A DNA stretch of 64,000 nt from an uncultured Chloroflexia bacterium (GTDB taxonomy: Bacteria; Chloroflexota; Limnocylindria; QHBO01): contig CAWFCQ010000007.1 in the NCBI GenBank assembly GCA_963814375.1, positions 1 to 64,000 on the forward strand. The letters are read 5' to 3'. This document shows, in pieces, positions 14,925-33,256 of this stretch; the first letter of the stretch is position 1, and each line of letters starts with the position of its first letter. The notes under the pieces were generated by a model, which was given only the letters and a program-made list of their open reading frames with translations, made no database searches and was not told the origin of the DNA. The translations under genes were made by a program, and so were the position numbers.

Positions 14925-18086
<3,162 letters not shown>

Positions 18087-18301: not shown

Positions 18302-18395
18302 CGGGCCCGAGTCAATTGTGTGACACATGTGGATGGTTTGTGGGGAACGGGGGTCTGGCTGTGGAGTCGATGTGGAGTGGTGGTCGGCGTCTCGG

Positions 18396-18527
18396 TTTAC
18401 CGCTGCTGGTAAGCAACGGAGAGGGAACGGCCGAATCGGGCTGAAATCGGTCGTGAATTGATCGGATCCGGTAAGCCGCGGCCATTGAGAGGGCCCTGGA
18501 TCTCCGTTGGTTACCAGGGTGAGTAAA
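18396..18527. repeat. Palindromic element, copy 1 (132 bp)
   Basis: TTTACC-GCTGCT-GGTAAGCAACGGAGA ... TTGATC-N6-GGTAAGCCGCGG ... TCTCCGTTGGTTACC-AGGGTG-AGTAAA. Confidence 0.93.
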
Positions 18528-18539
18528 GGCGGAGCTGCA

Positions 18540-19517
18540 GCAGGGTCGTTCGGCGTTGGTGGCACCGGGTGCAACCGCCGCGGATTGCGCCGAGCGGGAG
18601 CGGAACCATTCGAGGGTCTGCTCGATCGCGGCCTCGACCGGGGTCGGAGCCGCTCCGAAGGTGGTGCGGAACTCTTCGTCGTCGACGACCCAGGGGCCTT
18701 CCCACTGGTAGAGCGTGCCGCGCAGCTCGCGAATGCGGGGCGAGAAGAGGCCCGCCATGATCACCATCGGCCGCGAGATACGCGAAGGGCGCACCGGCCG
18801 GCCGACGGCCTCCGCGAGCTTGCTCCCCCACTCGCGGCCGGTCATGGCCGGCTGGACGGGCAGGTGCCAGACCCGACCATCGGCCTCGCTGCGCTCTCCG
18901 AGGGTGACGAGCCCCGCGGCCATGTCCGGAAGGAAGCTGAGGCTGTGCGGCTGGTCGAGGCTGCCGAGCCATCGGGTCTGCTTGCCGGCGGCCGCGGCGC
19001 CGAAGAGCAGCTCGCCGACTCCCGAGTTGATGCCGCCCGGGCCGAAGTAGTCGGACGAGCGCCCGATCGCGACGCGGATTCGGCCGTCGCGATGCGCGGC
19101 CAGGAGGTCATCGGCCATGCTCGCGCGCAGAAGGCCCTTGCGGTCGGTCGCTCGCTGCGGCGTGTCCGGGCGGAGCGGTCCGTCGGGCGGGCCGTACATG
19201 TAGAGGTTGTCGGCCATCACCAGCTTGGCGCCGAGCGCCTCCACGGCGCCGATGAGGTTCGCCTGGATCGGCGGGAACTCGATCGGCCAGCGATGGTAGG
19301 TCGGGCTGACGCACTGGTAGACCACGGTCGCGCCGTCGACGGCGGCACGCATGGCGGCCGGATCCGAGAGGTCGGCGGCGACGTTCTCGACGCCCTCGGT
19401 GCTTCCCGGCCGGCGGGAGACGCTTCGGACCCGATGGCCGCGGCGCAGCAGCTCCTTCACCACGGCGGCCCCGGTGCCGCCGGATCCACCCAGGACGACG
19501 TGCAGCTCATCGGTCAT
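18540..19517 (-). CDS. NAD-dependent epimerase/dehydratase family protein (3' end uncertain)
   Basis: GGSGGTG, DNLYMYG, KGLLRA, SDYFGPG; as assembled the ORF reads through element copy 1 to 18312. Confidence 0.85.
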
Positions 19518-19548
19518 TTCGGACACTCCATTCATTACGAGATGCTGT

Positions 19549-19595
19549 ATCTTGCTGGTGGTAAGATAGAGCAGGTATGTTGACGGTGTCAAGAT
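19549..19595. promoter_or_regulatory. Paired TetR operators
   Basis: ATCTTGCTGGTGGTAAGAT (19549-19567) and ATGTTGACGGTGTCAAGAT (19577-19595) between divergent genes. Confidence 0.75.
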
Positions 19596-20209
19596 GAAGG
19601 CGGCGACGCGCACGACGTATCACCACGGGGACCTCCGGGCGACCCTGCTCCGGGTGGGGCTGGAGCTCGTCGCCGAGCGCGGGATCAACGGCTTCACGCT
19701 GCGCGAGGTCGCGCGGCGCGCCGGTGTCAGCCACGCGGCTCCGTACCACCACTTCGCCGATCGCGGCGCGCTGGTCCGAGCGATCGTCGCCGAGAGCTAT
19801 GCCGACCTGGCCGTGGCGCTCGAGGCGTCAGCGACGAAAGGCGGCGACGACGCGGTCGAGCGGCTCGAGGCGATGGGAGAGGGATATGTCGGCGTTCGCG
19901 CTCGCCAACCCGGATCGGTATCGGCTCATGTTCCGCACCGAGCTCGCCGGCGACGGGTCGGAGGCCGACGAGGTCGACCGGGCCGGGGCCGATGCCTTCG
20001 GAGCGCTGGTCACCGCGGTGGAGGCGGCGCACGCCTCGGGTCGGCTCGCGGCCGACGTGGATGTCGGGACTGCGGCCGCCGCGTGCTGGGCCACGGTCCA
20101 CGGTGTCTCGTCGCTGCTGATCGATGGCGCTCTCGGCGTGCCGGCCGACCAGCCGGAACGGGGCCTTCAGCTCGCTCGCCGACTCGTGGAGGTGACGTTG
20201 GAGGACTGA
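19594..20209 (+). CDS. TetR family regulator with WHG domain (frameshift near 19890)
   Basis: YHHGDLR, LREVARRAGVSHAAPYHHF; second frame YRLMF...WATVHG. Confidence 0.9.
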
Positions 20210-20244
20210 CGACCTGAATCGGCTAAGGGCGCGCATCGTCGGGA

Positions 20245-23200
20245 TCAGGCTCGAGCCGTCTCTGACCTCGCGGCGGGCTCTGCGGCAGGCGCGTCTGCCG
20301 CTGAGACCTCGAGCGCATCATCCAGGAGGGCCGTCCAGGCGGTCGCCCCAACCGATTCGAAGGTGGCCCTCGCCTGCGGCTCCCAGGCACGGACGCGCGA
20401 ATCGCCAGGGAGCGCCAGGAGCACGACGATCGTCGTCAGCGCGGCGTCCCAATTGAGAGCCCGGCCGACCTGTACCGCGCGAGCGCGTCCGCAAACTGCC
20501 GCGTACGCTTCGTCCGGCTTGCCCTCGACAGCCGCGAGCACGGCGGACATCCCGATGCGAGCGGCATTGCTCCACGCGCCGCTGATCGGTGCTTCGTCAG
20601 CCCTCCGCCGCGCCGCTTCGAGCCGCCCTATCTCTCCGGTGTGGAGCACGGCGTTGGCCAGGTGATGCCACACCCAGAAAGCCGCCCATGGGTCGATTTC
20701 GATGGCGCTCGACGCTGTGGCTGCCGCGTCGTCCCATCGTCGCTCGAGGCACGCGTGCCACGTTCGAACGATCGAACGGGTTGAGGGGGACGCGCGGATT
20801 CGAGCTGCTTGCCACCAGCCTATCGAGCTCGGCAATGCCCTCGCGGATGTCCCTGCCGGCCGACGCCTCGATGTAGAGCCGATCGGGGATCAGGTAGATG
20901 AGGTCGTCGTCCGACGGACCGAGGTCCATCGCCTTTTCGAAGCAGGTCGTCACTTTCGCGCCATGTCTCGGCGGTTCCGCAGCGCGAGGGTCATTTCGAC
21001 CAGGTTGGCGATCAGCGAGGTGTATGCCCCTCGGTCGCCAAGGCGTTCAGCCAGCTGGACGGTCTGCCGGAATGCTTCCAGCGCACGCCCTGGCTCGTCG
21101 TCGGTGAGCGTGTTTCCCAGATTCATCCGAGCCCGAAGCCCGAGATGCGCCAGACCCTCGCGCTCGGCGATGCGGATCCCACTCTCGAGGAGCGATGCGC
21201 CCTCGCGGCGACGACCGAGCTGGCTCAGCGCGGAGCCCTTGTTCACGAGGGCGGTCGCGGCCACGCGTTCAAGGTCCTGGCGCTCGGCGATGACGAGGGC
21301 GCGGTCGGCGTAGGTGATGGATGCCTCGCTCCGTTCGTTGCGCATCTCCGCACGCGACTGTGCCGACAGGAGCGACGGCTTCGGGCTCGCCCCAGCCGGC
21401 CTCCGAGCTGTCGACGAGGCCGGCCACTGCCTCGGTGAGCAGCTCGGAAGCCTCGCGCACGCGGCCGGCGTCCAGCAGCAGGTCGGCGACGAGCGCGGTT
21501 GCGGCAATCGCCGCGGAACTGGTCACCGATCTCCCGGTAGAGCTCCAGCGCGGCTTCGGCGAATCCGACGTCGGCCGGAACGAGCCCAGCCGAATTCGCG
21601 TGTCCCGCTGCCCGCTCCAGCAGCTCGGCGCGCTCGCGAGGCTCCTTCGTCAGCTCCAGCGCGTGCTCGAGGTTTCCGACAGCCTGCTCGTGCGCTCCGA
21701 GCCTTGCGGCGCGATCGGCCGCCGAGCGAAGGCTGATGCGCGCCTGGGCGCCGACGGCATCGGCCTCGGGGCCCTCATCCGACGCTCGGTACGCGGCGAG
21801 GTAATGGGTGGCGAGCGCGCCGGCGGCTTCGTCAGATTCCGCTGCCTCCAGGTGGCGGGCGGCGGCGAGGTGCCGGCTCCGGCGCTCGCGCATGGCGAGC
21901 GTGTCGTAGGCGACCTCGCGGATCAGCGACTGGACGAACCGATACTGGCCCCGCTCCGGTGAGCGAGGATCGGCCTCGATCTCGAGCAGCTCCCGACGCA
22001 CCAGCCCTCGTAGCCGCGGCTCGAGCTCTTCGGGGCCACTGCCCGACACCGATGCCAGCGCATCGGCGCCGAAGGCCAGGCCGAGCACGGCCCCGTGCTG
22101 GAGCAGGGTGCGGTCTTCCGGCGAGAGCGCGTCAAGGCGCGAGGCGATGAGAGATCGGAGGCTGACCGGGATGGGCATCGACTCGAGGTCACCGGTCGGA
22201 ACGAAGGCGTCGCCCTGTCGCTCGATGCGCCCCTCGGCGAGGAGGGCGCGGACCATCTCGACGGCGTAGAGCGGCATCCCGCCGGCGCGCTCGACGATCG
22301 GTCCGATCTGGGCATCCGGCAGTCCGGGAAGCATGCCGCTCAGGAGCTCGCGCATCTCGGCATCGGCCATCGGCTCGAGCGCGATCGCGGTCGAGTTGCC
22401 GCGCCCGTCCCCCACCCGGCTCGCGTGTCCAGGAGCTCGGGCCGGGCGAGCGTCACCACGAACATCGGCTGTGCGCGCGACCAGTCGAGGAGGTGCTCGA
22501 CGAAGTCGAGGGTGCCGCTGTCCGCCCATTGAAGGTCCTCGAAGACGAGGACCGTCGTGCCGCGCTGCGCGACTCGCTCGAAGAACGTGCGCCAGGCAGG
22601 GAAGAGGGACTCGCCCTCGGCGGGGTCGGCGTTGACGCCGAGCAGGGCGAGGAGCGCCGGAGCGATCCATTCGCGCTCAGCGGGGTCGCTCACGAATTCC
22701 TCGACGGTGGCGGCGACGCGTTCCGTGGTCGTCTCGGCGTCATCGGCCTCCACCAGGCCGGCGCGCTGGCGAATCATCTCGCCGAGGGCCCAGAAGGCGA
22801 TCCCCTCGCCGTAGGACGGCGAGCGGCCGGTGTGCCACCACACGTCCTCCGCGATCCCGTCGGCGTAGACGCCGAGCTCCTCGATGAGCCGGCTCTTCCC
22901 GATTCCGGCGGGTCCGGTGATCGAGACGAGGCGGATGCGCTGCTCGCGGCCGACCGCGTGCAGGAGCTCCTTCGTGCGCCGAAGCTCATCGGCGCGACCG
23001 ACGAACGGCGGCTCGACGAGGCCCTCGCTCGAGCGCGCGGCGAGCACGCGGACCGCGCGCCAGGCGCGCATCGCCTCGGCCTTGCCCTTGAGCTGCCGTT
23101 CGTCGACCGGCTCGAAGACGATCGTCGCCGATGCGGCCTGGACGGTGCTCTGGTCGGCCAGCACCTCGCCCGGCCCGGCCGACGACTGCAGCCGCGACGC

Positions 23201-23764
23201 GGTGTTCACCATGTCGCCGGCCACCATGCCCTGGTTCGTCGCGCCGATGCTGACCGCCGCTTCGCCGGTGACGATGCCGGCCCGCGCGTCGAGGTCGTGG
23301 CCGAGGGCGCGGACCGCGTCGATCACCTCGAGGCCGGCCCGAACGGCACGCTGGGCGTCGTCCTCGTGCGCGATCGGCGTGCCCCACACCGCCATCACCG
23401 CATCGCCGATGAACTTCTCGACCGTCCCGCCGTGGCGCGTGATCGCCTCGCTGGCGGCCTCGAAGTAGCGGCTCTGGAGCGCGCGCACCTGCTCGGGGTC
23501 GCGCCCGTCGGCGAAGCTCGTGAACCCGACCAGATCGGCGAAGAGGACGCTGACGAACCGCCGTTCGGCCGATGGGCCTGTTGCGGGCTGGGACGCGGCT
23601 GGCGCCGGGGCCTCGGTCAGGGGCTTGGCGCAGGACGCGCAGAAGCGCGCGTCCGCCCGATTCGGCTCACCGCACGCGGGGCAGGTCGATGCGAGCGGGG
23701 CGGCGCATTGGTCGCAGAACTTGCTGCCGGTGCGGTTCTCGGCTCCGCATGCCGCGCAGATCAT
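20245..23764 (-). CDS. Double zinc ribbon + class III adenylate/guanylate cyclase + AAA ATPase + TPR protein (several frameshifts)
   Basis: Four CxxC motifs, FADLVGFT, EKFIGDA, GDMVNTASRLQ, GPAGIGKS, FEDLQWAD, GMPLYAVE and YRFVQSLIREVAY across ORF fragments. Confidence 0.9.
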
Positions 23765-23826
23765 CGGCCCTCCGTTGGTTTCGCTTCGCGGAGGGTAGTC
23801 GATGGAAGGCGCCGCCGCGGCGGCGA

Positions 23827-23959
23827 TTTACCTGGGGCGGTAAGCAACGGAGAGGGAGCAGCGGAATCGGGGCCGGAATCGGTCGTGGATTGATCAGATC
23901 CGGTAAGCCGCGACCATCGGGAGGCTCGCCGTTCTCCGTTGGTTACCAGGGCGGGTAAA
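23827..23959. repeat. Palindromic element, copy 2 (133 bp)
   Basis: TTTACC-TGGGGC-GGTAAGCAACGGAGA ... TTGATC-N6-GGTAAGCCGCG ... TCTCCGTTGGTTACC-AGGGCG-GGTAAA. Confidence 0.93.
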
Positions 23960-23970
23960 GCGGCCCAGCG

Positions 23971-24625
23971 CTACAGCAGGAGGATGCCGTTGGCACCCGG
24001 GTCGCGCCCATCGGCGAAGGCGCGCAGGAGATCGCGCGACTCCAGCGGGAACGACGCGCGAGCCGATGAGCCTGCGAGACGCAGCGCCTCGCGATTGGCG
24101 CGCGTCCCCTTCAGGACGACGATCGAGCCGATCGGCGCGCAGGTCTCGTTGCTTGAGGAGCGCCGAGCGCGTCTGGGCCTGCCAGTCGGCGAGCCGCGTC
24201 CAGAGCTCGCACAGGACGACGCAGCCAGGGATGGTCGCGGTGGCGTCGCCGGCTCGAAGGTCGCCGGGAATCGGCATCGGCACCTCGGTTGCCCACGTCC
24301 AGGCAGGGTGGGCGCGAGCCCGCAGCCCGGCGAGGAGGTCGAGCTGCGGTTGGTCGAGGAGCCGGCGTCCGGCCGGGAACGCCCGCAGGTAGAGCTTCAG
24401 GCCGAGCGCCGCAGAGATCTGGGCCAGCTGCCGGTAGGTGATGGACCCAATGAGGCCGCGCTCAACCATGCTGATCCTGCCCACTGACGTTCCCACCGCT
24501 CGCCCGACCTCCATCTGGGTCCTGCCCGACATGACGCGGGCGAGCCGGATCTCGCGACCGATGTCCGTCAGCTGCCAGGCAGCGAGGCGGAGCGCATCGG
24601 TGCGGGGCGAGCTTCGGTTCGGCAT
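23971..24625 (-). CDS. XRE-family HTH protein with putative C-terminal PD-(D/E)XK/DUF559-like nuclease domain (1-nt frameshift near 24124)
   Basis: IRLARVMSGRTQMEVGRAVGTSVGRISMVERG (XRE HTH); TEVP...RAGD...CELWT; removing one base gives RLIVVLKGTRANREAL...SFPL...GRDPGANGILLL* (about 217 aa). Confidence 0.75.
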
Positions 24626-24670
24626 GCGCCGATCCTGACGCAGCGCTCGTTACCGGCCCATTACGCGCCG

Positions 24671-24802
24671 ATTACCTGAGCGGGTAAGCAACGGAGAGGC
24701 AACCGGCGATATCGGGCCGATTGCGTCGTGGATTTGCCGACGCTGGTAACGGGCGGCTATCGAAATGCCCGCCGATCTCCGTTGCTTACCGGTGCTGGTA
24801 AA
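24671..24802. repeat. Palindromic element, copy 3 (132 bp)
   Basis: ATTACC-TGAGCG-GGTAAGCAACGGAGA ... TTTGCC-N6-GGTAA ... TCTCCGTTGCTTACC-GGTGCT-GGTAAA. Confidence 0.93.
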
Positions 24803-24847
24803 TCCCTCAGTTGACCCTTGGGCACGTATGGTGCAAGTGCAGCGCGC

Positions 24848-25132
24848 ATGGCGACCGAATCGGACCTGCGGCTGGCGATCCGAACGGTCGCTGTCAGCGC
24901 CCGCGCTGCGGTGACCACCCACGCCAAGGTCGGGCGACCGGACCTGGCTGCCGAGAGTGCGCGGCGCGGGTTGAAGATGCTCGGCGATCTGCGTGGCCGG
25001 CTGACTCCCGAGACTCCGGCGGAGACCCGCGAGACGTTCGATTCGGCGATGCGAGAGCTCGGGGCGGCGGCCGGGCTGGCCGACCTCGAGGTCGACGCCC
25101 CGCTGCCCAAAGAGGTCCGCAGCCGGCCCTGA
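24848..25132 (+). CDS. Hypothetical helical protein
   Basis: MATESDLRLAIRTV..., 94 aa with GC3-biased codons. Confidence 0.6.
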   Translation: MATESDLRLAIRTVAVSARAAVTTHAKVGRPDLAAESARRGLKMLGDLRGRLTPETPAETRETFDSAMRELGAAAGLADLEVDAPLPKEVRSRP

Positions 25133-25144
25133 GGGTATGCTCGA

Positions 25145-25537
25145 CTAGCGGATGGCCGGGTCGGCGAGGAGGCCGTCGACGGCGTCGGTCAGGAGGTCGA
25201 TGCTGAACGGCTTGCTGAGGGTCGCAACCCGGCGCGTCTCCGCGAGGCCCGCCTCCAGCTCTTGAAGCTCAAACAGGTCCGCGCTGCACAGCAGGACGGG
25301 CAGCTCCGTGAACATCGGATCGCGACGGACTTCCTGCGCGATCTCCCAGCCGTGATCACCCTCGACCCCGAGCCGCACGTCGATCATCAGCAGGTCCGGG
25401 CGAGACGAGCGGATCAGGTCGAGCGCATCGGGACGATCCCCGTCGATCAGGGTGGTGTCGTATCGGTCTCCCTCGAGGATGTCGTGGACGAGGTCGAGGA
25501 ACTCCGGATTGTCGTTGACGACCGTGATGCGAGCCAT
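25145..25537 (-). CDS. Single-domain response regulator receiver
   Basis: MARITVVNDN, PDLLMIDVRL, LLCSA, LSKPF; GGGAGG RBS. Confidence 0.9.
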   Translation of the reverse strand: MARITVVNDNPEFLDLVHDILEGDRYDTTLIDGDRPDALDLIRSSRPDLLMIDVRLGVEGDHGWEIAQEVRRDPMFTELPVLLCSADLFELQELEAGLAETRRVATLSKPFSIDLLTDAVDGLLADPAIR

Positions 25538-25631
25538 TGAACCCTCCCATGGCCCCGCTGGATTAGGCATCCAAGAGTACACCCGAGCCGAGCAAGGCCG
25601 ATGTGGCACACCGGTTGCCACACAGCCGGGC

Positions 25632-26708
25632 GTGGCTGTCCTCGCTCCCCTGATCGCATTCATCGGCCGCCAGCTCGGCCGGCTGGTGCAGATGGTCTTC
25701 GGCTGGGCGACGCTCATGCTCTTCGGCCGAGTCCCGCAGAGCAAGCAGCTGCTCCTGGCCGGCGTCTCCGCCGGCGCGCTGGCGTGGATCGTCGTCCTCA
25801 TCGGCATTGCGATCCCGGACGTCGGCACATTCCTGATCGCGCTGGTTCCGACCCCCGACTTCATCGAGGAGAGCTGGATTCGCATCGCGATGATCGTGCT
25901 GGCGGTGGCGCTGCCGCTGGCGGTCGGCGCAGGCGGCCTGATGCTGATGGACCCGGCGGATCGTCCGGAGGGCATCGGCGGCAAGGCGGTCCAGGTCCTG
26001 CGCGGATATCCGTACTCGGTCGTGCTGGCGCTCGTGATCCTGTTCCTGCTGGTCGTCGCACCCGCCTTCAAGGTGCGGACGATCATCAAGCGCTGGGACG
26101 ATGCCCACATCCCGATCATCGTCAAGCCCGACGGGTACGAGCAGGTTGCCGGGGAGCTCGAGCAGGCGATCGACTCGGCGGGCATGAACCTCGAGCGGGC
26201 ACGCGTGCCGCGCGTCCTGGAGGCGCCCTCCCGCCTCCTCGCCCTCGTCGGAGGCGAGAGCGTCAAGCGCCTCGTGCCGGATCGGCTGGTGATGCTCAAG
26301 TCCAAGTCGCTGGAGGTGACGATCCACCCGTCGGACGTCGCGATTGCGGGAGAGAAGGAGGCGGTGGCACGGGCGCGCGCGGCGGTGGCCGATCGGCTGA
26401 CGAAGACCGAGGCCTACCTCACCATCGCGGAGGAGTCGCAGGAGATCGAGGACGCGCTTCGCCGGCTGCGCGGGACCGATGTCGAGGATGACTCCGCACG
26501 GGTGGCGGCTCTCGAGAGCCTGCGCTCGATCGATGGCCGGCTCGCTCGCCTGGTCGTGCCATACGAGGAGTGGGAGGTCCTCTACCGCCAGCGACTGCAG
26601 ATCGAACGCGACCTGCTGCGCGCCGGCCAGCCCGACGAGACGGCCGAGGACGAGGAAGGGCTCCTGAAGCGTGTCGGCCACGCGGTCGAGTCACTCGTCG
26701 GCGGGTAG
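25632..26708 (+). CDS. Hypothetical membrane protein
   Basis: About 4 N-terminal TM helices and a soluble C-terminal domain. Confidence 0.8.
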   Translation: MAVLAPLIAFIGRQLGRLVQMVFGWATLMLFGRVPQSKQLLLAGVSAGALAWIVVLIGIAIPDVGTFLIALVPTPDFIEESWIRIAMIVLAVALPLAVGAGGLMLMDPADRPEGIGGKAVQVLRGYPYSVVLALVILFLLVVAPAFKVRTIIKRWDDAHIPIIVKPDGYEQVAGELEQAIDSAGMNLERARVPRVLEAPSRLLALVGGESVKRLVPDRLVMLKSKSLEVTIHPSDVAIAGEKEAVARARAAVADRLTKTEAYLTIAEESQEIEDALRRLRGTDVEDDSARVAALESLRSIDGRLARLVVPYEEWEVLYRQRLQIERDLLRAGQPDETAEDEEGLLKRVGHAVESLVGG

Positions 26709-26731
26709 TTCGGGCCGCGCCGCCGCCGCCG

Positions 26732-26863
26732 TTTACCGAGGCTGGTAACCAACGGCGAACGAGCGCCCGAATTCGGTTCGGATCGGTCGCGGATTTACCG
26801 GCCCGGGTAACGGCCGGCGAACGAGGCGGCCCTGGATCTCCGTTGGTTACCCGTACGAGTAAA
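26732..26863. repeat. Palindromic element, copy 4 (132 bp)
   Basis: TTTACC-GAGGCT-GGTAACCAACGGCGA ... TTTACC-GGCCCG-GGTAA ... TCTCCGTTGGTTACC-CGTACG-AGTAAA. Confidence 0.93.
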
Positions 26864-26951
26864 GGACCACCGGGCGCGGTACCTCTTGACAGCCTCGGCT
26901 TTCATGTCTACCTTGTCATTCATCTTTGTGTGAACGATAGGTACGACCTGA

Positions 26952-27560
26952 ATGAAGCCGAAGACCTCCCCTGCCGATCCGCCGGCCGAGATGCTCATCA
27001 CCGACGTCGAGCAGCTGAAGGCCGTCTCCGATCCCCTTCGCATCCAGCTCCTGGAGCTCATGGGCGAGGCACCGGTGCGCGGCTGGACCGCCAAGGAGCT
27101 GGCAGAGCGCCTGGCGACGAAGCAGACGAAGCTCTACCACCACATCAACCTGCTGGAGGAGCGCGGCTTCATCGGCGTGGCGGAGACCCGGATGGTCTCG
27201 GGCATCCAGGAGAAGCGCTACCGGGTCAACGCGCTCAGCTTCCGGGTCGACCGCAACCTCTTCACCGCCGCCCCGGCGCAGGAAGCCTTCTCGCACGTGC
27301 TCGACGCGATCTTCGAGAAGGCGCGCAACGAGATCATGGCCGGCCAGCGCTCCGGGCTGATCGACCTCGGTGAGGGGGAGTTCGAGCGGCGTCGCGCGGC
27401 GATGTGGTCGTCACACGCCCGGCTGAGCGACGCGAGCGTCCGCAAGGTGATGCGCCAGATCAAGAAGCTGGCCGAGATCGACGACCTCGAGGAGGCCGAC
27501 GGCACCGACTACGGGCTCGTCCTGGCCTTCTATCCGCGTGCAACCGACAAGGAGGACTGA
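26952..27560 (+). CDS. ArsR-like (HTH_20) winged-helix regulator
   Basis: LKAVSDPLRIQLL, TAKELA, LYHHINLLEERG, GIQEKRY. Confidence 0.88.
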   Translation: MKPKTSPADPPAEMLITDVEQLKAVSDPLRIQLLELMGEAPVRGWTAKELAERLATKQTKLYHHINLLEERGFIGVAETRMVSGIQEKRYRVNALSFRVDRNLFTAAPAQEAFSHVLDAIFEKARNEIMAGQRSGLIDLGEGEFERRRAAMWSSHARLSDASVRKVMRQIKKLAEIDDLEEADGTDYGLVLAFYPRATDKED

Positions 27561-27563
27561 CCG

Positions 27564-28833
27564 ATGACCGACACACCGATGGGGGTCCGCGACGTCCTCC
27601 GCATCCGCGACTACCGACACCTCTTCGCCGGCCAGGTCGTCTCCGACATCGGCGACGGCATCACGCTGCTGCTCGTCCTGCTGGTCATCAACGACCTGAC
27701 CGGTGGCTCCACCATCGCCATCGCGCTGATGGCGATCGCCGAGGCGGTGCCGGCCTTCACCGTCGGCCTCGTCGCCGGGGTGTACGTCGACCGATGGAAC
27801 CGCCGCTCGATCATGCTGGCCGCCGACCTGCTGCGCGCCGGCATCGTCATCACCTTCGGGCTCATCTCGAGCCCCGAGCTGCTCCCGCTCCTCTACGCCC
27901 TGGGCTTCGCTCCAGGCGTCCGTCAGCACGTTCTTCCGCCCGGCGCGCGGCGCACTCCTGCCGCACATCGTCCCGGCCGAGGGCCTGCCGGCGGCGAACG
28001 GGCTGGCACAGGCGTCCCAGGTCATCGGCGGCGTCATCGGTGCCGGGATCGCCGGGCTCCTGTTCGGCCTCTTCGGATCCGGCCTCATCGGATTCGTCAT
28101 CGACGCGGGCACATTCCTCGTGTCGTTCCTGCTCATCTCGCGCATCGCCTCGTCGGCCGGCGCGATCGCGGGCGACGTCCGCGCGCGTGCGGCTGGATCG
28201 AGCGTCGTCTCGTCGCTGCGCGACGGATTCGGGATCGTTCGCCACTCGCGCGTCCTGGCCGGGATCATCCTCGCCGCGGGCGTGACGATGCTCGGGCTCG
28301 GCTCGGTGAACGTGCTGTTCGTCCCGCTCGTCATGAACGACCTCCAGGTCAACCCGACCTGGATGGCCGGGATCGACGCGGCGCAGACGGTGGGCATGCT
28401 GGCCGCCGCCGCCCTCGTCACCACGCTGGTCAAGCGCGTGGCCCCGACCTCGATCATCACCCTCGGCCTCGTCGGCATCGGGATCTGCATCGGCCTCATG
28501 GCAGGCGTGAGCGCGATCTGGCAGGTCCTCGTGATCCTCGTGATCGTCGGGCTGTGCGTGACGCCGGTCCAGGCGATGATCCAGACGCTCGTGCAGACCG
28601 CGACGCCGGACGCGTCTCGTGGCCGGGTGGTCTCGCTGATCCAGGCGGCGATGTCGACGGCGAGCGTCGCCTCGATGGCGATCGGCGGCGTCCTTGGCCA
28701 GGTCATCGGGATCCGGGAGGTGTTCTTCGCGGCTGGCGTCATCACGCTCGTCGCCGCCGCAATCTCGTTCGTGATGTTCCGAGGAGTGTCCGGGCGACCC
28801 GTGTCGAGGCCGGCCGCCGCGGAGCCCGCCTAG
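27564..28833 (+). CDS. MFS transporter (MFS_3/DHA3-like; frameshift near 27912)
   Basis: LFAGQVVSDIGDG, GVYVDRWNRR, RGRVVS. Confidence 0.9.
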
Positions 28834-28841
28834 CGCCGCGG

Positions 28842-28972
28842 TTTACCGGCTGCGGTAACCAACGGAGATCGGCGAAGCCCGGAGCCCGGTTTCCGGTCGC
28901 CGAATTCCCAGACGGGTAAGCCGCGGCTATCGGGAGGCCTTCCGATCGCCGTTAGTTACCGGCACGGAAAAA
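28842..28972. repeat. Palindromic element, copy 5 (131 bp)
   Basis: TTTACC-GGCTGC-GGTAACCAACGGAGA ... GGTAAGCCGCGG ... TCGCCGTTAGTTACC-GGCACG-GAAAAA. Confidence 0.9.
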
Positions 28973-28982
28973 CGGCGGCGGT

Positions 28983-31900
28983 TCAGCCCCGAGTTGGGAC
29001 CCCGGTCGTGGCACCGACCGAGGAAGGTGCGGTGGCGCGGGCGAGGGCTGCATCGAGGCGGTCGAGAAAGGCGGAGGCGCGGAGTTCGACGAGGAGCGGT
29101 CGCACCTCCTCCGCCCACTGCTGAACCTCGGATTCGTCCGGCATGAGCGTGGCCGCCCCGACGACGAGCATCGCATCCTCCATGAGGAGGCCCAGGCGCC
29201 GCAGGATCTCGCGCGCCGCGCGCGCCGCGTCGAGCGCCTCGGGGCGGCGGTTCTCGAGCGCCGCCACCGCGGCTTTCGCCTGCAGCCGCAGCGAGTCCGA
29301 CCAGGCTCCCGTGAGGCGCAGGTTTGCGACCCGATCTGCGACGCTCCGAACCCGCTCGAGATCCCGCGCCGCAATGGCGGCCTCGAGGGCCAGGCCCAGC
29401 GGGACCTCCTCGTTCTGTGGCTGGAGAGCCGCGGCCTCCATGCCGAAGTCGAATGCACGCTCAGGATGGCCCGAGGCGAGTGCGGCGGTGCCGCTGGCCA
29501 TCGGCAGCGTGAACAGGTCGTCCGGGTCCTCGCTACCGGCTGTGAGCTCGCGCAGCTCCTCGACAACGGCATCCAGCCGCTCGCCGCGGGCTGATTCGAT
29601 GACCCCAATCAGCGCGATGAGCCGCACCCGATCTCCCCGCAGGGTCGCTCCCTCAAGAGCCTCGCGCATGACGGCGAGGTGCTCGTCCCACGCTTGGCCC
29701 TGCGAATATGCGGTGACGCCCGCGGTTCCGGACAACCAATTGAACATGCCGCGGTCGCCGATCGTCCGGGCGAGCTCACGCGCCTCGTTGTACATCCTCC
29801 CGGCGCGTGCCGGATCGTCGTCGGAATAGGCCGACGCAAGGTTGTTTCGAACGCGCATCTCGATGCTCCGGTCGCCGATCTGCTGAACGAGCTCGAGCGC
29901 GGCCTCCTGGAGGGCGATCGACTCGCGGCGCCGGCCCAGGATGTTCAGGCCCGGAGCCCTTGTTCACGAACGCCTCGACCACGACGTCGTCGAGGTTCAG
30001 CCGCTCGGCAATGGGCAGAGCACGCTCCCCGGCGGCCACCGCCCGCTCGCCGTCCCCGGCACGCATGTAGGCCCGCGCCAGGTTGGCGAGCACGTTGGCA
30101 AGGGCGACCTCGTCGCCCGCCGCCTCCGCTTCTGCCACCCCGGCCTCGAGAATCTCGGTGGCACGCATGATCTGGCTGGCGTCGATCAGGACCTTGCCCA
30201 GACGGGCGGTCGCTCGCGCCGCCGCACTCGTGTCGCCGATCTCGCGATACGCATCCGCGGCGGCGGAAGCGAACCGCTCGCGCACCCTCGGAGGCGGCAG
30301 CGGCCGCTGACCGGGCCGCGCGATCGAGCAGCGGGGCGCGCTCGGCCGCGCCGGGGGTCACGGCCAGAGCCTGCTCGAGGTAGGACACCGCCTGCTCGTG
30401 GGCGCCGAGCTCTGCCGCGCGGTCGGCGGCGGCGGTCAGGGCGATGCGCGCCTGGGTGGCGACCGCATCGGCCTCCGCGCCCTCTTCGGACGCTTCGTGC
30501 GCTGCGAGGTAGTGGCTCGCGAGCGCGCCGGCCAGCTCGTCATCGCCGAGTGACTCGTAGTGGCGGGCAGCGGCGAGGTGGCGATCGCGGCGATCACGGC
30601 GGGCCAGCGTGCCGTAGGCGACCTCGCGGATGAGCGACTGCACGAACTTGTACTGGCCACGCTCCGGTGACGCCGGATCGCGCTCGACATCGAGCAGCTC
30701 ACGCCGCACGAGGTCGCGCAGGCGGCCGTCGAGATCGGCTGCCTCGGCGCCGGTCGTGGCAGCGAGCGTGTCGGCGCTGAAGACCTGTCCGAGGACGGCC
30801 GCGTCCTGGAGCAGGCTGCGGTCCGAGCCTTCCAGCGCGTCGAGACGCGAGGCGATGAGCGAGCGCAGCGTGTCGGGAACGGTGATGTTCGACAGGTCGC
30901 CGACCGGCTCGTACACGTCGCCGACGCGCTTGATGCGCCCATCGGCCAGCAGCCCGCGAACGGTCTCGACGGCGTAGAGCGGAACTCCCTCCGCGCGACC
31001 GACGATGGCGGCGAGGGCGTCATCCGGCAGCCCGGGGACGAGGCCGTTGAGCATCTCGCGCACGGCCGCATCGGTCAGCGGCTCGAGGGCGAGGGCGGTC
31101 AGGTGGCGGCGGTTGGCGGCCCAGTCGGCGCGCCGGTCGAAGAGCTCCGGCCGCGCCAGCGTCACGATCATGATCGGGAGGCCGCGCGACCAGTCGAGCA
31201 GGTGGTCGATGAAGTCGAGCAGGCCCGAATCGGCCCACTGGAGGTCCTCGAACACGAGCACCGTCGTCCCACGCTCGGCGATGCGCTCGAGGAAGGTGCG
31301 CCACGCCGGGAACAGCGTGTCACGCCCACCCGCAGGTCCCTCCTCGACGCCCAGCAGTGCCAGCAGCGCGGGACCGATGAGCTCGCGCTCGGCCGGATCG
31401 GCCACGTACTCAGCCACCGTCGCCGCGATTCGCTCGCGCGTCTCGGCCTCGTCCGCGTCCTCGGTCAGCTGCGCGCGGCGGCGCACCATCTCGCCGAGCG
31501 CCCAGAAGGTCATACCCTCGCCGTACGAGGGTGAGCGGCCGCGATGCCACCAGATGTCCTCGGCCACGCCGTCGATGTACTTCTCGAGCTCCCAGACCAG
31601 CCGGCTCTTGCCGATGCCGCCGGGACCCGTGATCGAGACCAGCCGCGTTCGACGCTCGCGGCCGACGGCGTGGAGCACCTCCTTGAGCTGGCGCAGCTCC
31701 TCCTCGCGGCCGACGAACGGGGCCTCGAGCGCATCGGCGCGTCCCTGCCCGCCCCGCTGGGCGACGACGCGCATCGCCTGCCACGCCGGAACCGGGCTCG
31801 TCTTGCCCTTGAGCGAGTGGTCGCCGATCGACTCGAACACGATCGACCGCTCGGCGGCGCGCATGGTGCTCTCGCCGACCAGCACGGTGCCGGGTTCGGC

Positions 31901-32508
31901 CACGCCCTGGAGGCGGGCCGCGGTGTTGACGAGGTCGCCGGCCACCATCCCCTGGTTCTGGGCGTTGAGCGTCACCGCCGCCTCGCCGGTCAGCACACCC
32001 CCGCGCGCCCGAAGGTTCGGGTTGAGCGTGCCGACCGCGTCCACCAGCTCGAGCGCGGCGCGAACGGCGCGTTCGGCGTCATCCTCGTGCGCGATCGGGG
32101 TGCCCCAGACCGCCATCACCGCGTCGCCGATGAACTTCTCGACCGTCCCGCCATGCAGCGTGATGATCCCGGTCGCCCGTTCGAAGTACTTGCTGAGCAG
32201 CTCGCGGACCGCCTCGGGGTCCCGATCCTCCGCCAGGGTCGTGAACCCGACGAGATCGGTGAAGAGGACGGTCACGACCCGGCGCTCGGCGCTCCGTTCC
32301 TGGTTGCTGCGTTTGCGGCTCCGTGGCGGTCGCGACCGGCGGCGGACGTGGCGGCACCGGCGAAGGCGTGGCCGCAGCTGGCGCAGAAGCGGGCGTCCGA
32401 CCGATTCGTGGCGCCGCAGCTCGGGCAGGCGGCCTCGAGGGCCGTCCCACAGCTATCGCAGAAGCGGCTCCCGGGACGGTTCTCGGTCCCACACGACGAG
32501 CAGCGCAA
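28983..32508 (-). CDS. Second double zinc ribbon + class III cyclase + AAA ATPase + TPR protein (frameshifts)
   Basis: TTG start after GGAGGA; CSSC..CDSC..CPSC..CASC, FTDLVGFT, EKFIGDA, GDLVNTAARLQ, GPGGIGKS, FEDLQWAD. Confidence 0.9.
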
Positions 32509-32611
32509 CCTGGTTCCTCCGACAGATATGACGCGGAGCGTACTCCGCGACGCAACCCGATCGTAAGATGCGCGGCGTGGGGGTCGTGGCATCCATGGAC
32601 GGAGGACCCGC

Positions 32612-33082
32612 ATGAGCTCGACAGCACCTGTGGCCGCGCCGATCGCCTACGGCGGGTTCTGGATCCGCTTGCTGGCCATCATCCTCGACGGGATCATCAT
32701 CGCGGTCGTGACCGGAGCCCTCGCGCCGATCCTCGGGGTGGACAGCCTCATCCCGCCCACCCCGCCACCGACCGATCCTCCGCCGGGCATCAGCATCAAC
32801 TTCCAGTTCAACGCGCTGGGAACGCTGTTCGGTCTCGTCTACTTCGTCGGTTTCTGGGCGTGGCGCGGGCAGACGCCGGGGATGATCCCGTTCCGGATGC
32901 GCATCGTCCGCGCCGCCGATGGTTCACGACCCGACTGGGTGATCGCCCTGCTCCGCTACGTCGGGCTCATCATCTCGATCGTCGTCTTCCTCCTCGGCGT
33001 CATCTGGGCCGCCTTCGACGGCCGCAAGCAGGGCTGGCACGACAAGATCGCCGGCACTCTCGTGGTGCGCGATCCCGCCTGA
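32612..33082 (+). CDS. RDD family membrane protein
   Basis: YGGFWIRLLAIILD, GQTPG, KQGWHDKIAGT. Confidence 0.92.
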   Translation: MSSTAPVAAPIAYGGFWIRLLAIILDGIIIAVVTGALAPILGVDSLIPPTPPPTDPPPGISINFQFNALGTLFGLVYFVGFWAWRGQTPGMIPFRMRIVRAADGSRPDWVIALLRYVGLIISIVVFLLGVIWAAFDGRKQGWHDKIAGTLVVRDPA

Positions 33083-33124
33083 CGACGGGTCGCATCGTGT
33101 CTGGCCGGCCGTGGCGCGGCGGCA

Positions 33125-33256
33125 TTTACCGGCTCGGGTAACCAACGGAGAGGACGGGCCCCAAACGGGTCCTTTCTGGTCTGGGATTTACTCGTACCGG
33201 TAAGCCGCGGCCATCCGGAGGGCATCGGATCGCCGTTAGTTACCGATATCGGTAAA
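33125..33256. repeat. Palindromic element, copy 6 (132 bp)
   Basis: TTTACC-GGCTCG-GGTAACCAACGGAGA ... TTTACT-CGTACC-GGTAAGCCGCGG ... TCGCCGTTAGTTACC-GATATC-GGTAAA. Confidence 0.93.

Follow-up and report, generated by a model that had tools for sequence, protein, structure and literature searches.

The first 64 kb of contig C7 from an uncultured Chloroflexia bacterium (below, the window) carry six palindromic intergenic elements of about 132 bp, two of which bracket a single gene for a protein with an XRE-type helix-turn-helix (HTH) and a predicted PD-(D/E)XK nuclease-like domain. The locus raises the question of whether elements and gene belong together, in the way that REPINs, which are doublets of repetitive extragenic palindromic (REP) sequences, belong with the genes for RAYT transposases. 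A preliminary description had proposed a RAYT-analogous system in which the protein binds, cuts and locally spreads the elements. We favor, with moderate confidence, a RAYT-like repeat-nuclease partnership with an unrelated enzyme as the best reading. The association of the elements with the gene, the lineage specificity of the pairing, insertion polymorphism and a pattern of local duplication are all observed here and this part of the proposal stands, whereas binding, cutting and spreading by the protein we infer. The genome, coded G000 in comparisons, is an assembly of 2.52 Mb in 8 contigs, with 70% G+C and 89% completeness.

Architecture and genomic distribution of the element

The six window elements are 131-133 bp each and have a mean column identity of 78% over 133 aligned columns. 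Each carries three palindromic boxes of 16-18 bp (TTACC-N6-GGTAA in the lineage of this genome), spaced by about 63 and about 52 bp. Invariant across the six copies are the TTACC...GGTAA box at both ends, an inverted CAACGG/CCGTT pair and the third, central box. The inverted CAACGGAGA/TCTCCGTTG pair adjoins both outer boxes; the termini form 27-bp inverted repeats, and each end has two inverted arms around a 6-bp spacer. The terminal-box pattern has 11 matches in the window, all of them inside the six elements, where 100 shuffles predict 0.00. A profile of the six copies scores 100-121 bits on the plus strand and 19-42 bits on the minus strand for every copy, and the elements therefore share one orientation. 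Five of the six lie upstream of some gene, and their co-orientation is independent of gene direction. Pattern and profile scans of the 64 kb found no copy beyond these six. Thus, the number, positions, orientation and terminal repeats of the elements are as first described. The N6 spacers of neighboring copies, compared by eye, showed no pattern.

In the whole genome, nhmmer finds 20 copies, of which one is partial and one is weak. They are not evenly spread: 14 are grouped near the beginnings of C7 and C8, in one cluster each (Table 1), where simple arithmetic for a uniform spread would predict about 0.12 copies per 15 kb. The word 'locally' in the proposal is only partly right, since the other six copies lie on other contigs or far along C8. 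All 34 terminal-box matches in the genome fall inside elements of about 132 bp. Nowhere in the genome are box pairs found at the kilobase spacing of an insertion sequence (IS), except for the pair around the HTH-nuclease gene.

Although single copies fold into long hairpins, a structured RNA is not supported. There was no Rfam match at the gathering score, RNAalifold gave no consensus fold over the 20 copies, and pairing in the structure model was no better than in shuffled controls, with 413-428 of 500 shuffles scoring as high. This indicates that the conserved part is the sequence of the boxes and not a fold.

Three observations concern the surroundings of the elements. A (GCC)3-type trinucleotide tract lies within 30 bp of 6 of the 20 elements, compared with 2.5% of 20,000 random genome positions, a control that pools intergenic and coding DNA; these tracts may be a target preference or filler DNA. 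The partial element, a right-hand portion of about 70-85 nt at C8 11411-11495, is found immediately upstream of an alpha/beta-hydrolase-adenylate-cyclase gene (C8 10054-11367, minus strand; L001 10054-11495). Cyclase-domain genes adjoin elements four times in this genome.

Table 1. Features of the window and of the genome-wide set of elements (positions in the window unless a contig is named)
Feature	Position	Strand	Remarks
nrdJ, class II ribonucleotide reductase	14925..18086	-	Pfam; conserved anchor; element-gene-element unit adjoins it in several relatives
Element copy c1	18396..18527	+	solo, upstream of nrdJ; 82% identity to c2, the closest pair in the genome
5.3-kb segment between c1 and c2	18528..23826	.	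epimerase-family open reading frame, TetR gene, zinc-ribbon/cyclase/AAA_16 gene (Pfam)
Element copy c2	23827..23959	+	11 bp past the gene's stop
XRE-HTH / PD-(D/E)XK-like gene	23971..24625	-	frameshifted near 24124/24125
Element copy c3	24671..24802	+	45 bp before the gene's start codon
Element copy c4	26732..26863	+	solo
Element copy c5	28842..28972	+	solo; right-hand box degenerate; nearest relative c6 (70%)
Element copy c6	33125..33256	+	solo
C7 cluster	18-33 kb	all +	six copies
C8 cluster	2-41 kb	first three co-oriented	eight copies, one partial
Scattered copies (six)	C1 (two, one weak), C3, C4, C5, C8 523 kb		single copies

The bracketed gene, its protein and its homologs

The bracketing of the gene by c2 and c3 is confirmed, with 11 bp from the true stop (23971) to c2 and 45 bp from the start (24625) to c3. 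The gene is frameshifted: for the final 50 residues, the match to the family continues in a different frame, and intact homologs of 217 aa confirm both the frameshift and the repaired 217-aa protein that had been proposed. It is the only member of the HTH-nuclease family found in this genome. Pfam places an XRE-type HTH at residues 21-80 (HTH_31 with 29.8 bits, cut-off 27; HTH_3 with 27.6 bits, cut-off 23), and there is no match to Y1_Tnp, the HUH/Y1 transposase family, in the 89% complete assembly. The protein is thus of the XRE-HTH and not of the HUH type, as claimed.

Residues 88-217 match no Pfam, NCBIfam or PADLOC family. A known defence family was tried and rejected, since PADLOC returned HTH matches only. 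A sequence search of solved structures (PDB) likewise gave weak HTH matches only, and a protein Atlas search with the C-terminal domain returned only unnamed Chloroflexota clusters. An AlphaFold2 model, built from 11 sequences with a predicted local distance difference test (pLDDT) score of 86.5, consists of an HTH bundle followed by an alpha-beta-beta-beta-alpha-beta domain. The predicted HTH matches controller proteins of restriction-modification (R-M) systems (C.BclI, C.AhdI, C.Esp1396I) and ClgR, with Z scores of 10-11. The model of residues 90-217 matches 2okf (Z 9.0; 105 aligned residues; root-mean-square deviation (rmsd) 3.1), 2vld (Z 8.7; 95 aligned; rmsd 2.9), 1y88 (Z 8.2), and Card1 and Can2 (Z 7.6-7.8), although fold matches at Z 8-9 are moderate and the tool warns that unrelated models can reach them. 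The best structural match of the domain carries the title fdxN-element excision-controlling factor, and Foldseek places an archaeal Holliday-junction resolvase at rank 36.

Conservation was assessed in 90 diverse family members. D91, E114, D122, R124, D127, D147, Q149, R153, K158, D161, N177 and R178 are conserved in at least 95% of them and E140 in at least 90%, while the HTH recognition region is variable. In the model, D127 stands at the start of beta 2 and E140 on beta 3; two positions beyond E140 the family has W, F, Y, V or I, and the conserved K158 sits on the next helix. We predict that the C-terminal domain has a PD-(D/E)XK nuclease-like fold with enzyme-like conservation, which agrees with the domain first proposed, save that the (D/E)xK lysine is out of place.

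A homodimer is also predicted, with its interface in the HTH domain. Its score is 0.73 compared with 0.40 for the best of three controls, the runs have at least 71% of contacts in common, and the partner pLDDT is at least 83. Among reference proteins, 20 of the 30 whose solved structures are pairs of one chain attain the pass mark, as does 1 of the 23 whose solved structures are single chains. Structures of XRE dimers have been solved, and the model may simply be reproducing them.

Most homologs of the gene in other genomes of the genus also lie between copies of their own repeats. In 25 of 31 genus loci, the best local alignment of upstream with downstream flank scores above all non-cognate pairings, or in 22 of 28 when three loci from unpublished genomes (L032, L033, L035) are left aside. 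The flanks form a direct repeat of about 130-150 bp that spans roughly -200 to -45 upstream and +5 to +165 downstream, with typical gaps of about 45 bp before and 5-30 bp after the gene. In a second set, drawn from named records of metagenome-assembled genomes (MAGs), the direct repeat passes in 16 of 24 usable loci; these are what remain of 43 loci after 14 with partial genes and 5 with short flanks are removed, and their genomes overlap those of the first set, which makes the two sets not independent. In 20 of 31 upstream flanks and 19 of 32 downstream ones, palindromic arms surpass the 95th percentile seen in random genome segments; counting either flank, 26 of 32 loci do so. Short tandem arrays with 8-bp and 8/14-bp periods stand just outside the downstream or upstream element at two loci (L030 2370-2481 and L029 1274-1353).

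The sequence of these repeats depends on the lineage of the protein. The lineage-A covariance model matches both gene sides in the window and in 5 of 11 other loci (L020, L021, L022, L024, L025), one side in L023 and L028, and neither in L026, L027, L029 and L030; at the last six loci, other repeats and palindromes, particular to each, flank the gene on either side. By protein lineage, the boxes read TTACC-N6-GGTAA, TTGCGC-N3-4-GCGCAA, TTGCC-N5-GGCAA, TCGGCC-N7-GGCCGA or GTCGCG-N5-CGCGAC, a pairing read by comparison of the sequences. The architecture of -45 and +5 to +30, together with an own element family, is kept in at least 10 protein lineages. Thus, homologs do carry their own flanking palindromes, and the boxes differ by lineage.

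Solo elements in trans are stronger evidence than these linked flanks. The solo pattern of one other family has 5, 4 and 1 sites in G053, G061 and G056, and that of a second has 29 clustered sites in G041 and 2 each in G001 and G016; both have none in G000 and G054. Solos of these two families occur only in genomes with the cognate gene lineage.

The family has been found almost only in MAGs of Limnocylindria (Chloroflexota). A word-indexed search returned 929 proteins, and an exhaustive profile search returned 5349 at E<=0.001 and 294 clusters (50% identity) at E<=1e-30. Named records are Candidatus Limnocylindria or Chloroflexota MAGs, with a few contigs in bins labelled otherwise, and the members are labelled merely 'XRE transcriptional regulator'. 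Within the genus, 20 of 24 other genomes match the lineage-A element model and 50 of 60 match the protein, with up to 7 protein matches per genome; G006 and G050, both unpublished, are counted in these tallies. The element model found nothing in 16 genomes representing four further families of the class. In public sequencing runs, six holders contain at most 0.09 of the sampled words. The contigs of many family members measure 900-2000 bp, roughly one element-gene-element unit, which suggests that metagenome assemblies break at unit borders.

Insertion sites, duplication and rival explanations

Orthologous intergenic loci carry the element in some genomes and lack it in others. At the solo copy on contig C5, the flank alignments are 219 bp apart in this genome and 9-27 bp apart in G010, G053, G003, G009, G062 and G045, whereas they are about 1.4-1.5 kb apart in G066 and G022; the tally for this site includes the unpublished genomes G006, G050 and G075. 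The solo copy on contig C3 lies between convergent stop codons, in a gap of 211 bp compared with 28-80 bp in at least 12 relatives, and the orthologous site holds palindromic elements of unrelated sequence in G004, G010 and G042. The solo elements are insertions, and the pattern shows repeated, independent insertion. At the C3-orthologous site, G011 (L112) and G046 (L114) have a small conserved open reading frame (ORF) of about 60 aa instead of an element, of which G014 seems to retain a remnant.

Adjacent copies are mutual nearest relatives (c1/c2 82%; c5/c6 70%; those at C8 2071, 5382 and 7996 74-76%) above a background of about 60%. The element proximal to nrdJ has been partly duplicated in tandem, independently, in G066 and G003, and G014 has three tandem element pairs. 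Together these point to a process acting on the DNA itself.

These data bear on the view that the protein is only a regulator. The C-terminal domain would then serve oligomerization or ligand sensing, the elements would be operators through which the gene controls itself and a regulon (nrdJ and the cyclase-ATPases), and the paralogs would have diversified their operators against cross-talk. An HTH structurally closest to R-M controller proteins and ClgR-type repressors, a dimer predicted through that domain, an upstream copy that ends 45 bp before the start codon, the position of most window copies upstream of genes, and box spacings that are roughly whole helical turns would all fit. However, the C3 solo between convergent stops has no promoter to control, and a site that holds unrelated element families in some genomes and is empty in at least 12 others fits poorly with a purely regulatory role. 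Nor would this view account for array orientation that ignores gene direction, the full copy that also lies past the stop codon in most loci, the roughly one dozen invariant charged residues retained in the C-terminal domain, or the nearest-relative and tandem copies. We consider it unlikely.

Less probable again is that the elements are miniature inverted-repeat transposable elements (MITEs) or composite-transposon ends moved by another enzyme, unassembled or unrecognized, with the HTH-nuclease as passenger, regulator or immunity factor. MITEs typically have a constant length and terminal inverted repeats such as those of about 27 bp seen here, the assembly is incomplete, and some genomes have element matches without the matching gene lineage. 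However, no transposase Pfam match was found in or near the arrays, Y1_Tnp likewise has no match in the genome, and terminal-box pairs at IS-like spacing occur only around this gene; the search for a known IS or MITE parent found none in this 89% complete assembly. No target-site duplication was seen, and one would not expect a passenger to retain the same layout and its own element family in at least 10 lineages.

The elements also divide accessory segments beside nrdJ. The order is nrdJ-element-gene-element in G066, G014 and G003, and nrdJ-c1-[5.3 kb]-c2-gene-c3 in G000; by synteny, the 5.3-kb segment is absent from the nrdJ-proximal position in the first three. Segment order differs between G000 and G003. 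Nine copies on C7 of G014 (295-312 kb) all score best on the plus strand, and four of five on C11 of G003 on the minus strand, the fifth (L096 9590-9720) scoring alike on both. To see whether the starts of C7 and C8 adjoin, the first genes of both were sought in five relatives; one was found nowhere and the other as one weak paralog, a result that bears only on the presence of these genes there. Which protein lineage occupies a given locus varies between genomes, for example upstream of nrdJ and beside the cyclase-AAA_16 gene.

An integron-like cassette platform, in which the elements are sites of an unrecognized site-specific recombinase, the segments act as cassettes and the HTH-nuclease has an accessory role or controls excision, is very improbable: co-oriented, uniform-length, imperfectly palindromic sites bounding variable segments beside a conserved gene, ends of two inverted arms with a 6-bp spacer, accessory segments from which two genes, looked for in 5 relatives, went undetected in 4 or 5 of them, and a top structural match titled as an excision-controlling factor (XisH is said to be one) recall such a platform, but the only two tyrosine recombinases of the genome (Phage_integrase) are at C4:116208 and C4:161438, with none among the scanned ORFs of C7 14.9-35 kb and C8 0.4-46 kb, the canonical attC core heptamers are unmatched, the segments are multi-gene and on both strands, and solos also occur singly and far from arrays.

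Two genes of the 5.3-kb segment deserve mention. The zinc-ribbon/adenylate-cyclase/AAA_16 gene (window 20245-23764, minus strand) is split over the ORFs 22340-23764 and 21243-22670 and, compared with its G003 homolog, switches frame near 22612 and 22403-22412; it is either a pseudogene or carries an assembly indel. An intact paralog of 1181 aa is at C8 34338-37883. The epimerase-family ORF (18312-19613, minus strand, 433 aa, domain residues 39-244) runs through c1 before its stop, and its 3' end may have been altered by this element.

Under the repeat-nuclease partnership that we favor, the element of about 132 bp is MITE-like, insertion-polymorphic DNA, and the gene is kept between two direct copies of its own element. 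A protein dimer would bind the boxes via its HTH, and this probably also represses the gene's own promoter, which is expected in the upstream copy. The nuclease domain would cut at or near the element ends, and host repair could then duplicate or re-insert elements; Ku is present in the genome. DNA between two elements would be carried along in the fashion of a composite transposon, which would build co-oriented arrays of accessory-gene segments beside nrdJ. A more specific and more doubtful proposal, which we put forward tentatively, is a new class of prokaryotic mobile element whose sole dedicated protein is a sequence-specific HTH/PD-(D/E)XK nuclease. Here, staggered cuts at the terminal boxes, followed by host fill-in and end joining, would duplicate the element, capture foreign DNA and build an integrase-free, integron-like array by nrdJ, with nuclease and element families co-diversifying in one class of bacteria.

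Several points weigh against the partnership. We know of no transposase that consists solely of a PD-(D/E)XK nuclease, the fold matches are moderate, as stated above, and the motif is atypical because the canonical lysine two residues past E140 is missing. Target-site duplications were sought and none was seen: no direct repeat abuts an element among the 20 copies, and the comparison of filled with empty sites on C5 and C3 shows none either. The copies are 55-82% identical to one another and are thus old, with no recent burst. Gene-bearing units show conserved synteny across species, so the gene itself seldom moves. Since a gene and its own flanks are linked, some co-divergence is expected from linkage alone. 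Some genomes, among them G009, G020 and G022, have lineage-A-like element matches but no lineage-A gene. Finally, G000 and G014 have more lineage-A element matches than any other genome searched, and both carry a broken gene, frameshifted in the former and split in the latter; either broken genes coincide with many elements, or the long-read assemblies carry indels. The G014 lineage-A gene appears as two adjoining matches (G014:C7:295799-296334), and the 46 element matches of that genome, with both strands counted, are the highest number among the genomes searched.

Significance and relation to known systems

To our knowledge, REPIN-RAYT is the only well-described bacterial repeat family with a dedicated, mostly vertically inherited enzyme gene. 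If the partnership is true, this would be a second system with an unrelated enzyme, and such partnerships would be a general outcome and not a peculiarity of HUH enzymes. It would also give a role to a large unannotated family (the 294 clusters above) and help to explain why Limnocylindria assemblies break at units of about 1 kb. Natural nuclease-box pairs are numerous and could provide a set of sequence-specific DNA-binding and DNA-cutting modules with readable specificity, and the element-bracketed accessory arrays beside nrdJ may be a case of integrase-free gene capture. Searches of the literature open to full-text query found no description of this protein-repeat pairing.

The system shares features with several others. 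ERIC sequences (enterobacterial repetitive intergenic consensus, also IRU) are intergenic imperfect palindromes of enterobacteria of about 127 bp, constant in length and without a transposase of their own. The elements here are similar in their constant length, intergenic location and imperfect palindromy, but they have no sequence similarity to ERIC and no Rfam match, and a cognate protein gene can be identified. MITEs and MITE-flanked composite units, such as integron mobilization units, are short, non-coding and constant in length, with terminal inverted repeats. To these our elements add the likeness of pairs bracketing cargo and of presence or absence at orthologous sites, and they differ in that neither a target-site duplication nor a parent IS nor a DDE transposase was found, the sole associated gene being that of a nuclease-like HTH protein. 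In chromosomal integrons, attC sites separate cassettes. Here too, uniform-length, co-oriented imperfect palindromes, with ends of inverted arms around a short spacer, separate variable segments, but there is no adjacent IntI, the core motifs are other ones, the segments hold several genes on two strands, and isolated solos exist.

The controller (C) proteins of R-M systems bind palindromic operators as dimers. The modeled HTH superposes on C.BclI, C.AhdI and C.Esp1396I, and the C-terminal domain has a predicted fold like that of PD-(D/E)XK restriction endonucleases. Unlike in R-M systems, both parts are fused in one chain of 217 aa, no methyltransferase neighbor was seen in the Pfam-scanned region, the (D/E)xK lysine is absent, and repeats of 130 bp flank the gene on both sides.

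The closest comparison is with REPIN-RAYT systems (PMC5581495, PMC8049555, PMC8266576, PMC3479197, PMC3733652). The enzyme is different, namely XRE-HTH plus PD-(D/E)XK-like and not HUH/Y1. The elements are of 131-133 bp with three boxes, whereas REPs are hairpins of 20-40 bp, or REPIN doublets, with tags of the GTAG/CGTC type (PMC3733652). Here, the flanking copies are direct repeats, there are up to 7 gene copies per genome, and co-oriented arrays bracket accessory genes. What the two share is palindromic intergenic repeats, a cognate gene flanked by its own repeats and gene lineages paired with repeat families, together with long-term persistence, mostly vertical inheritance and old, diverged copies.

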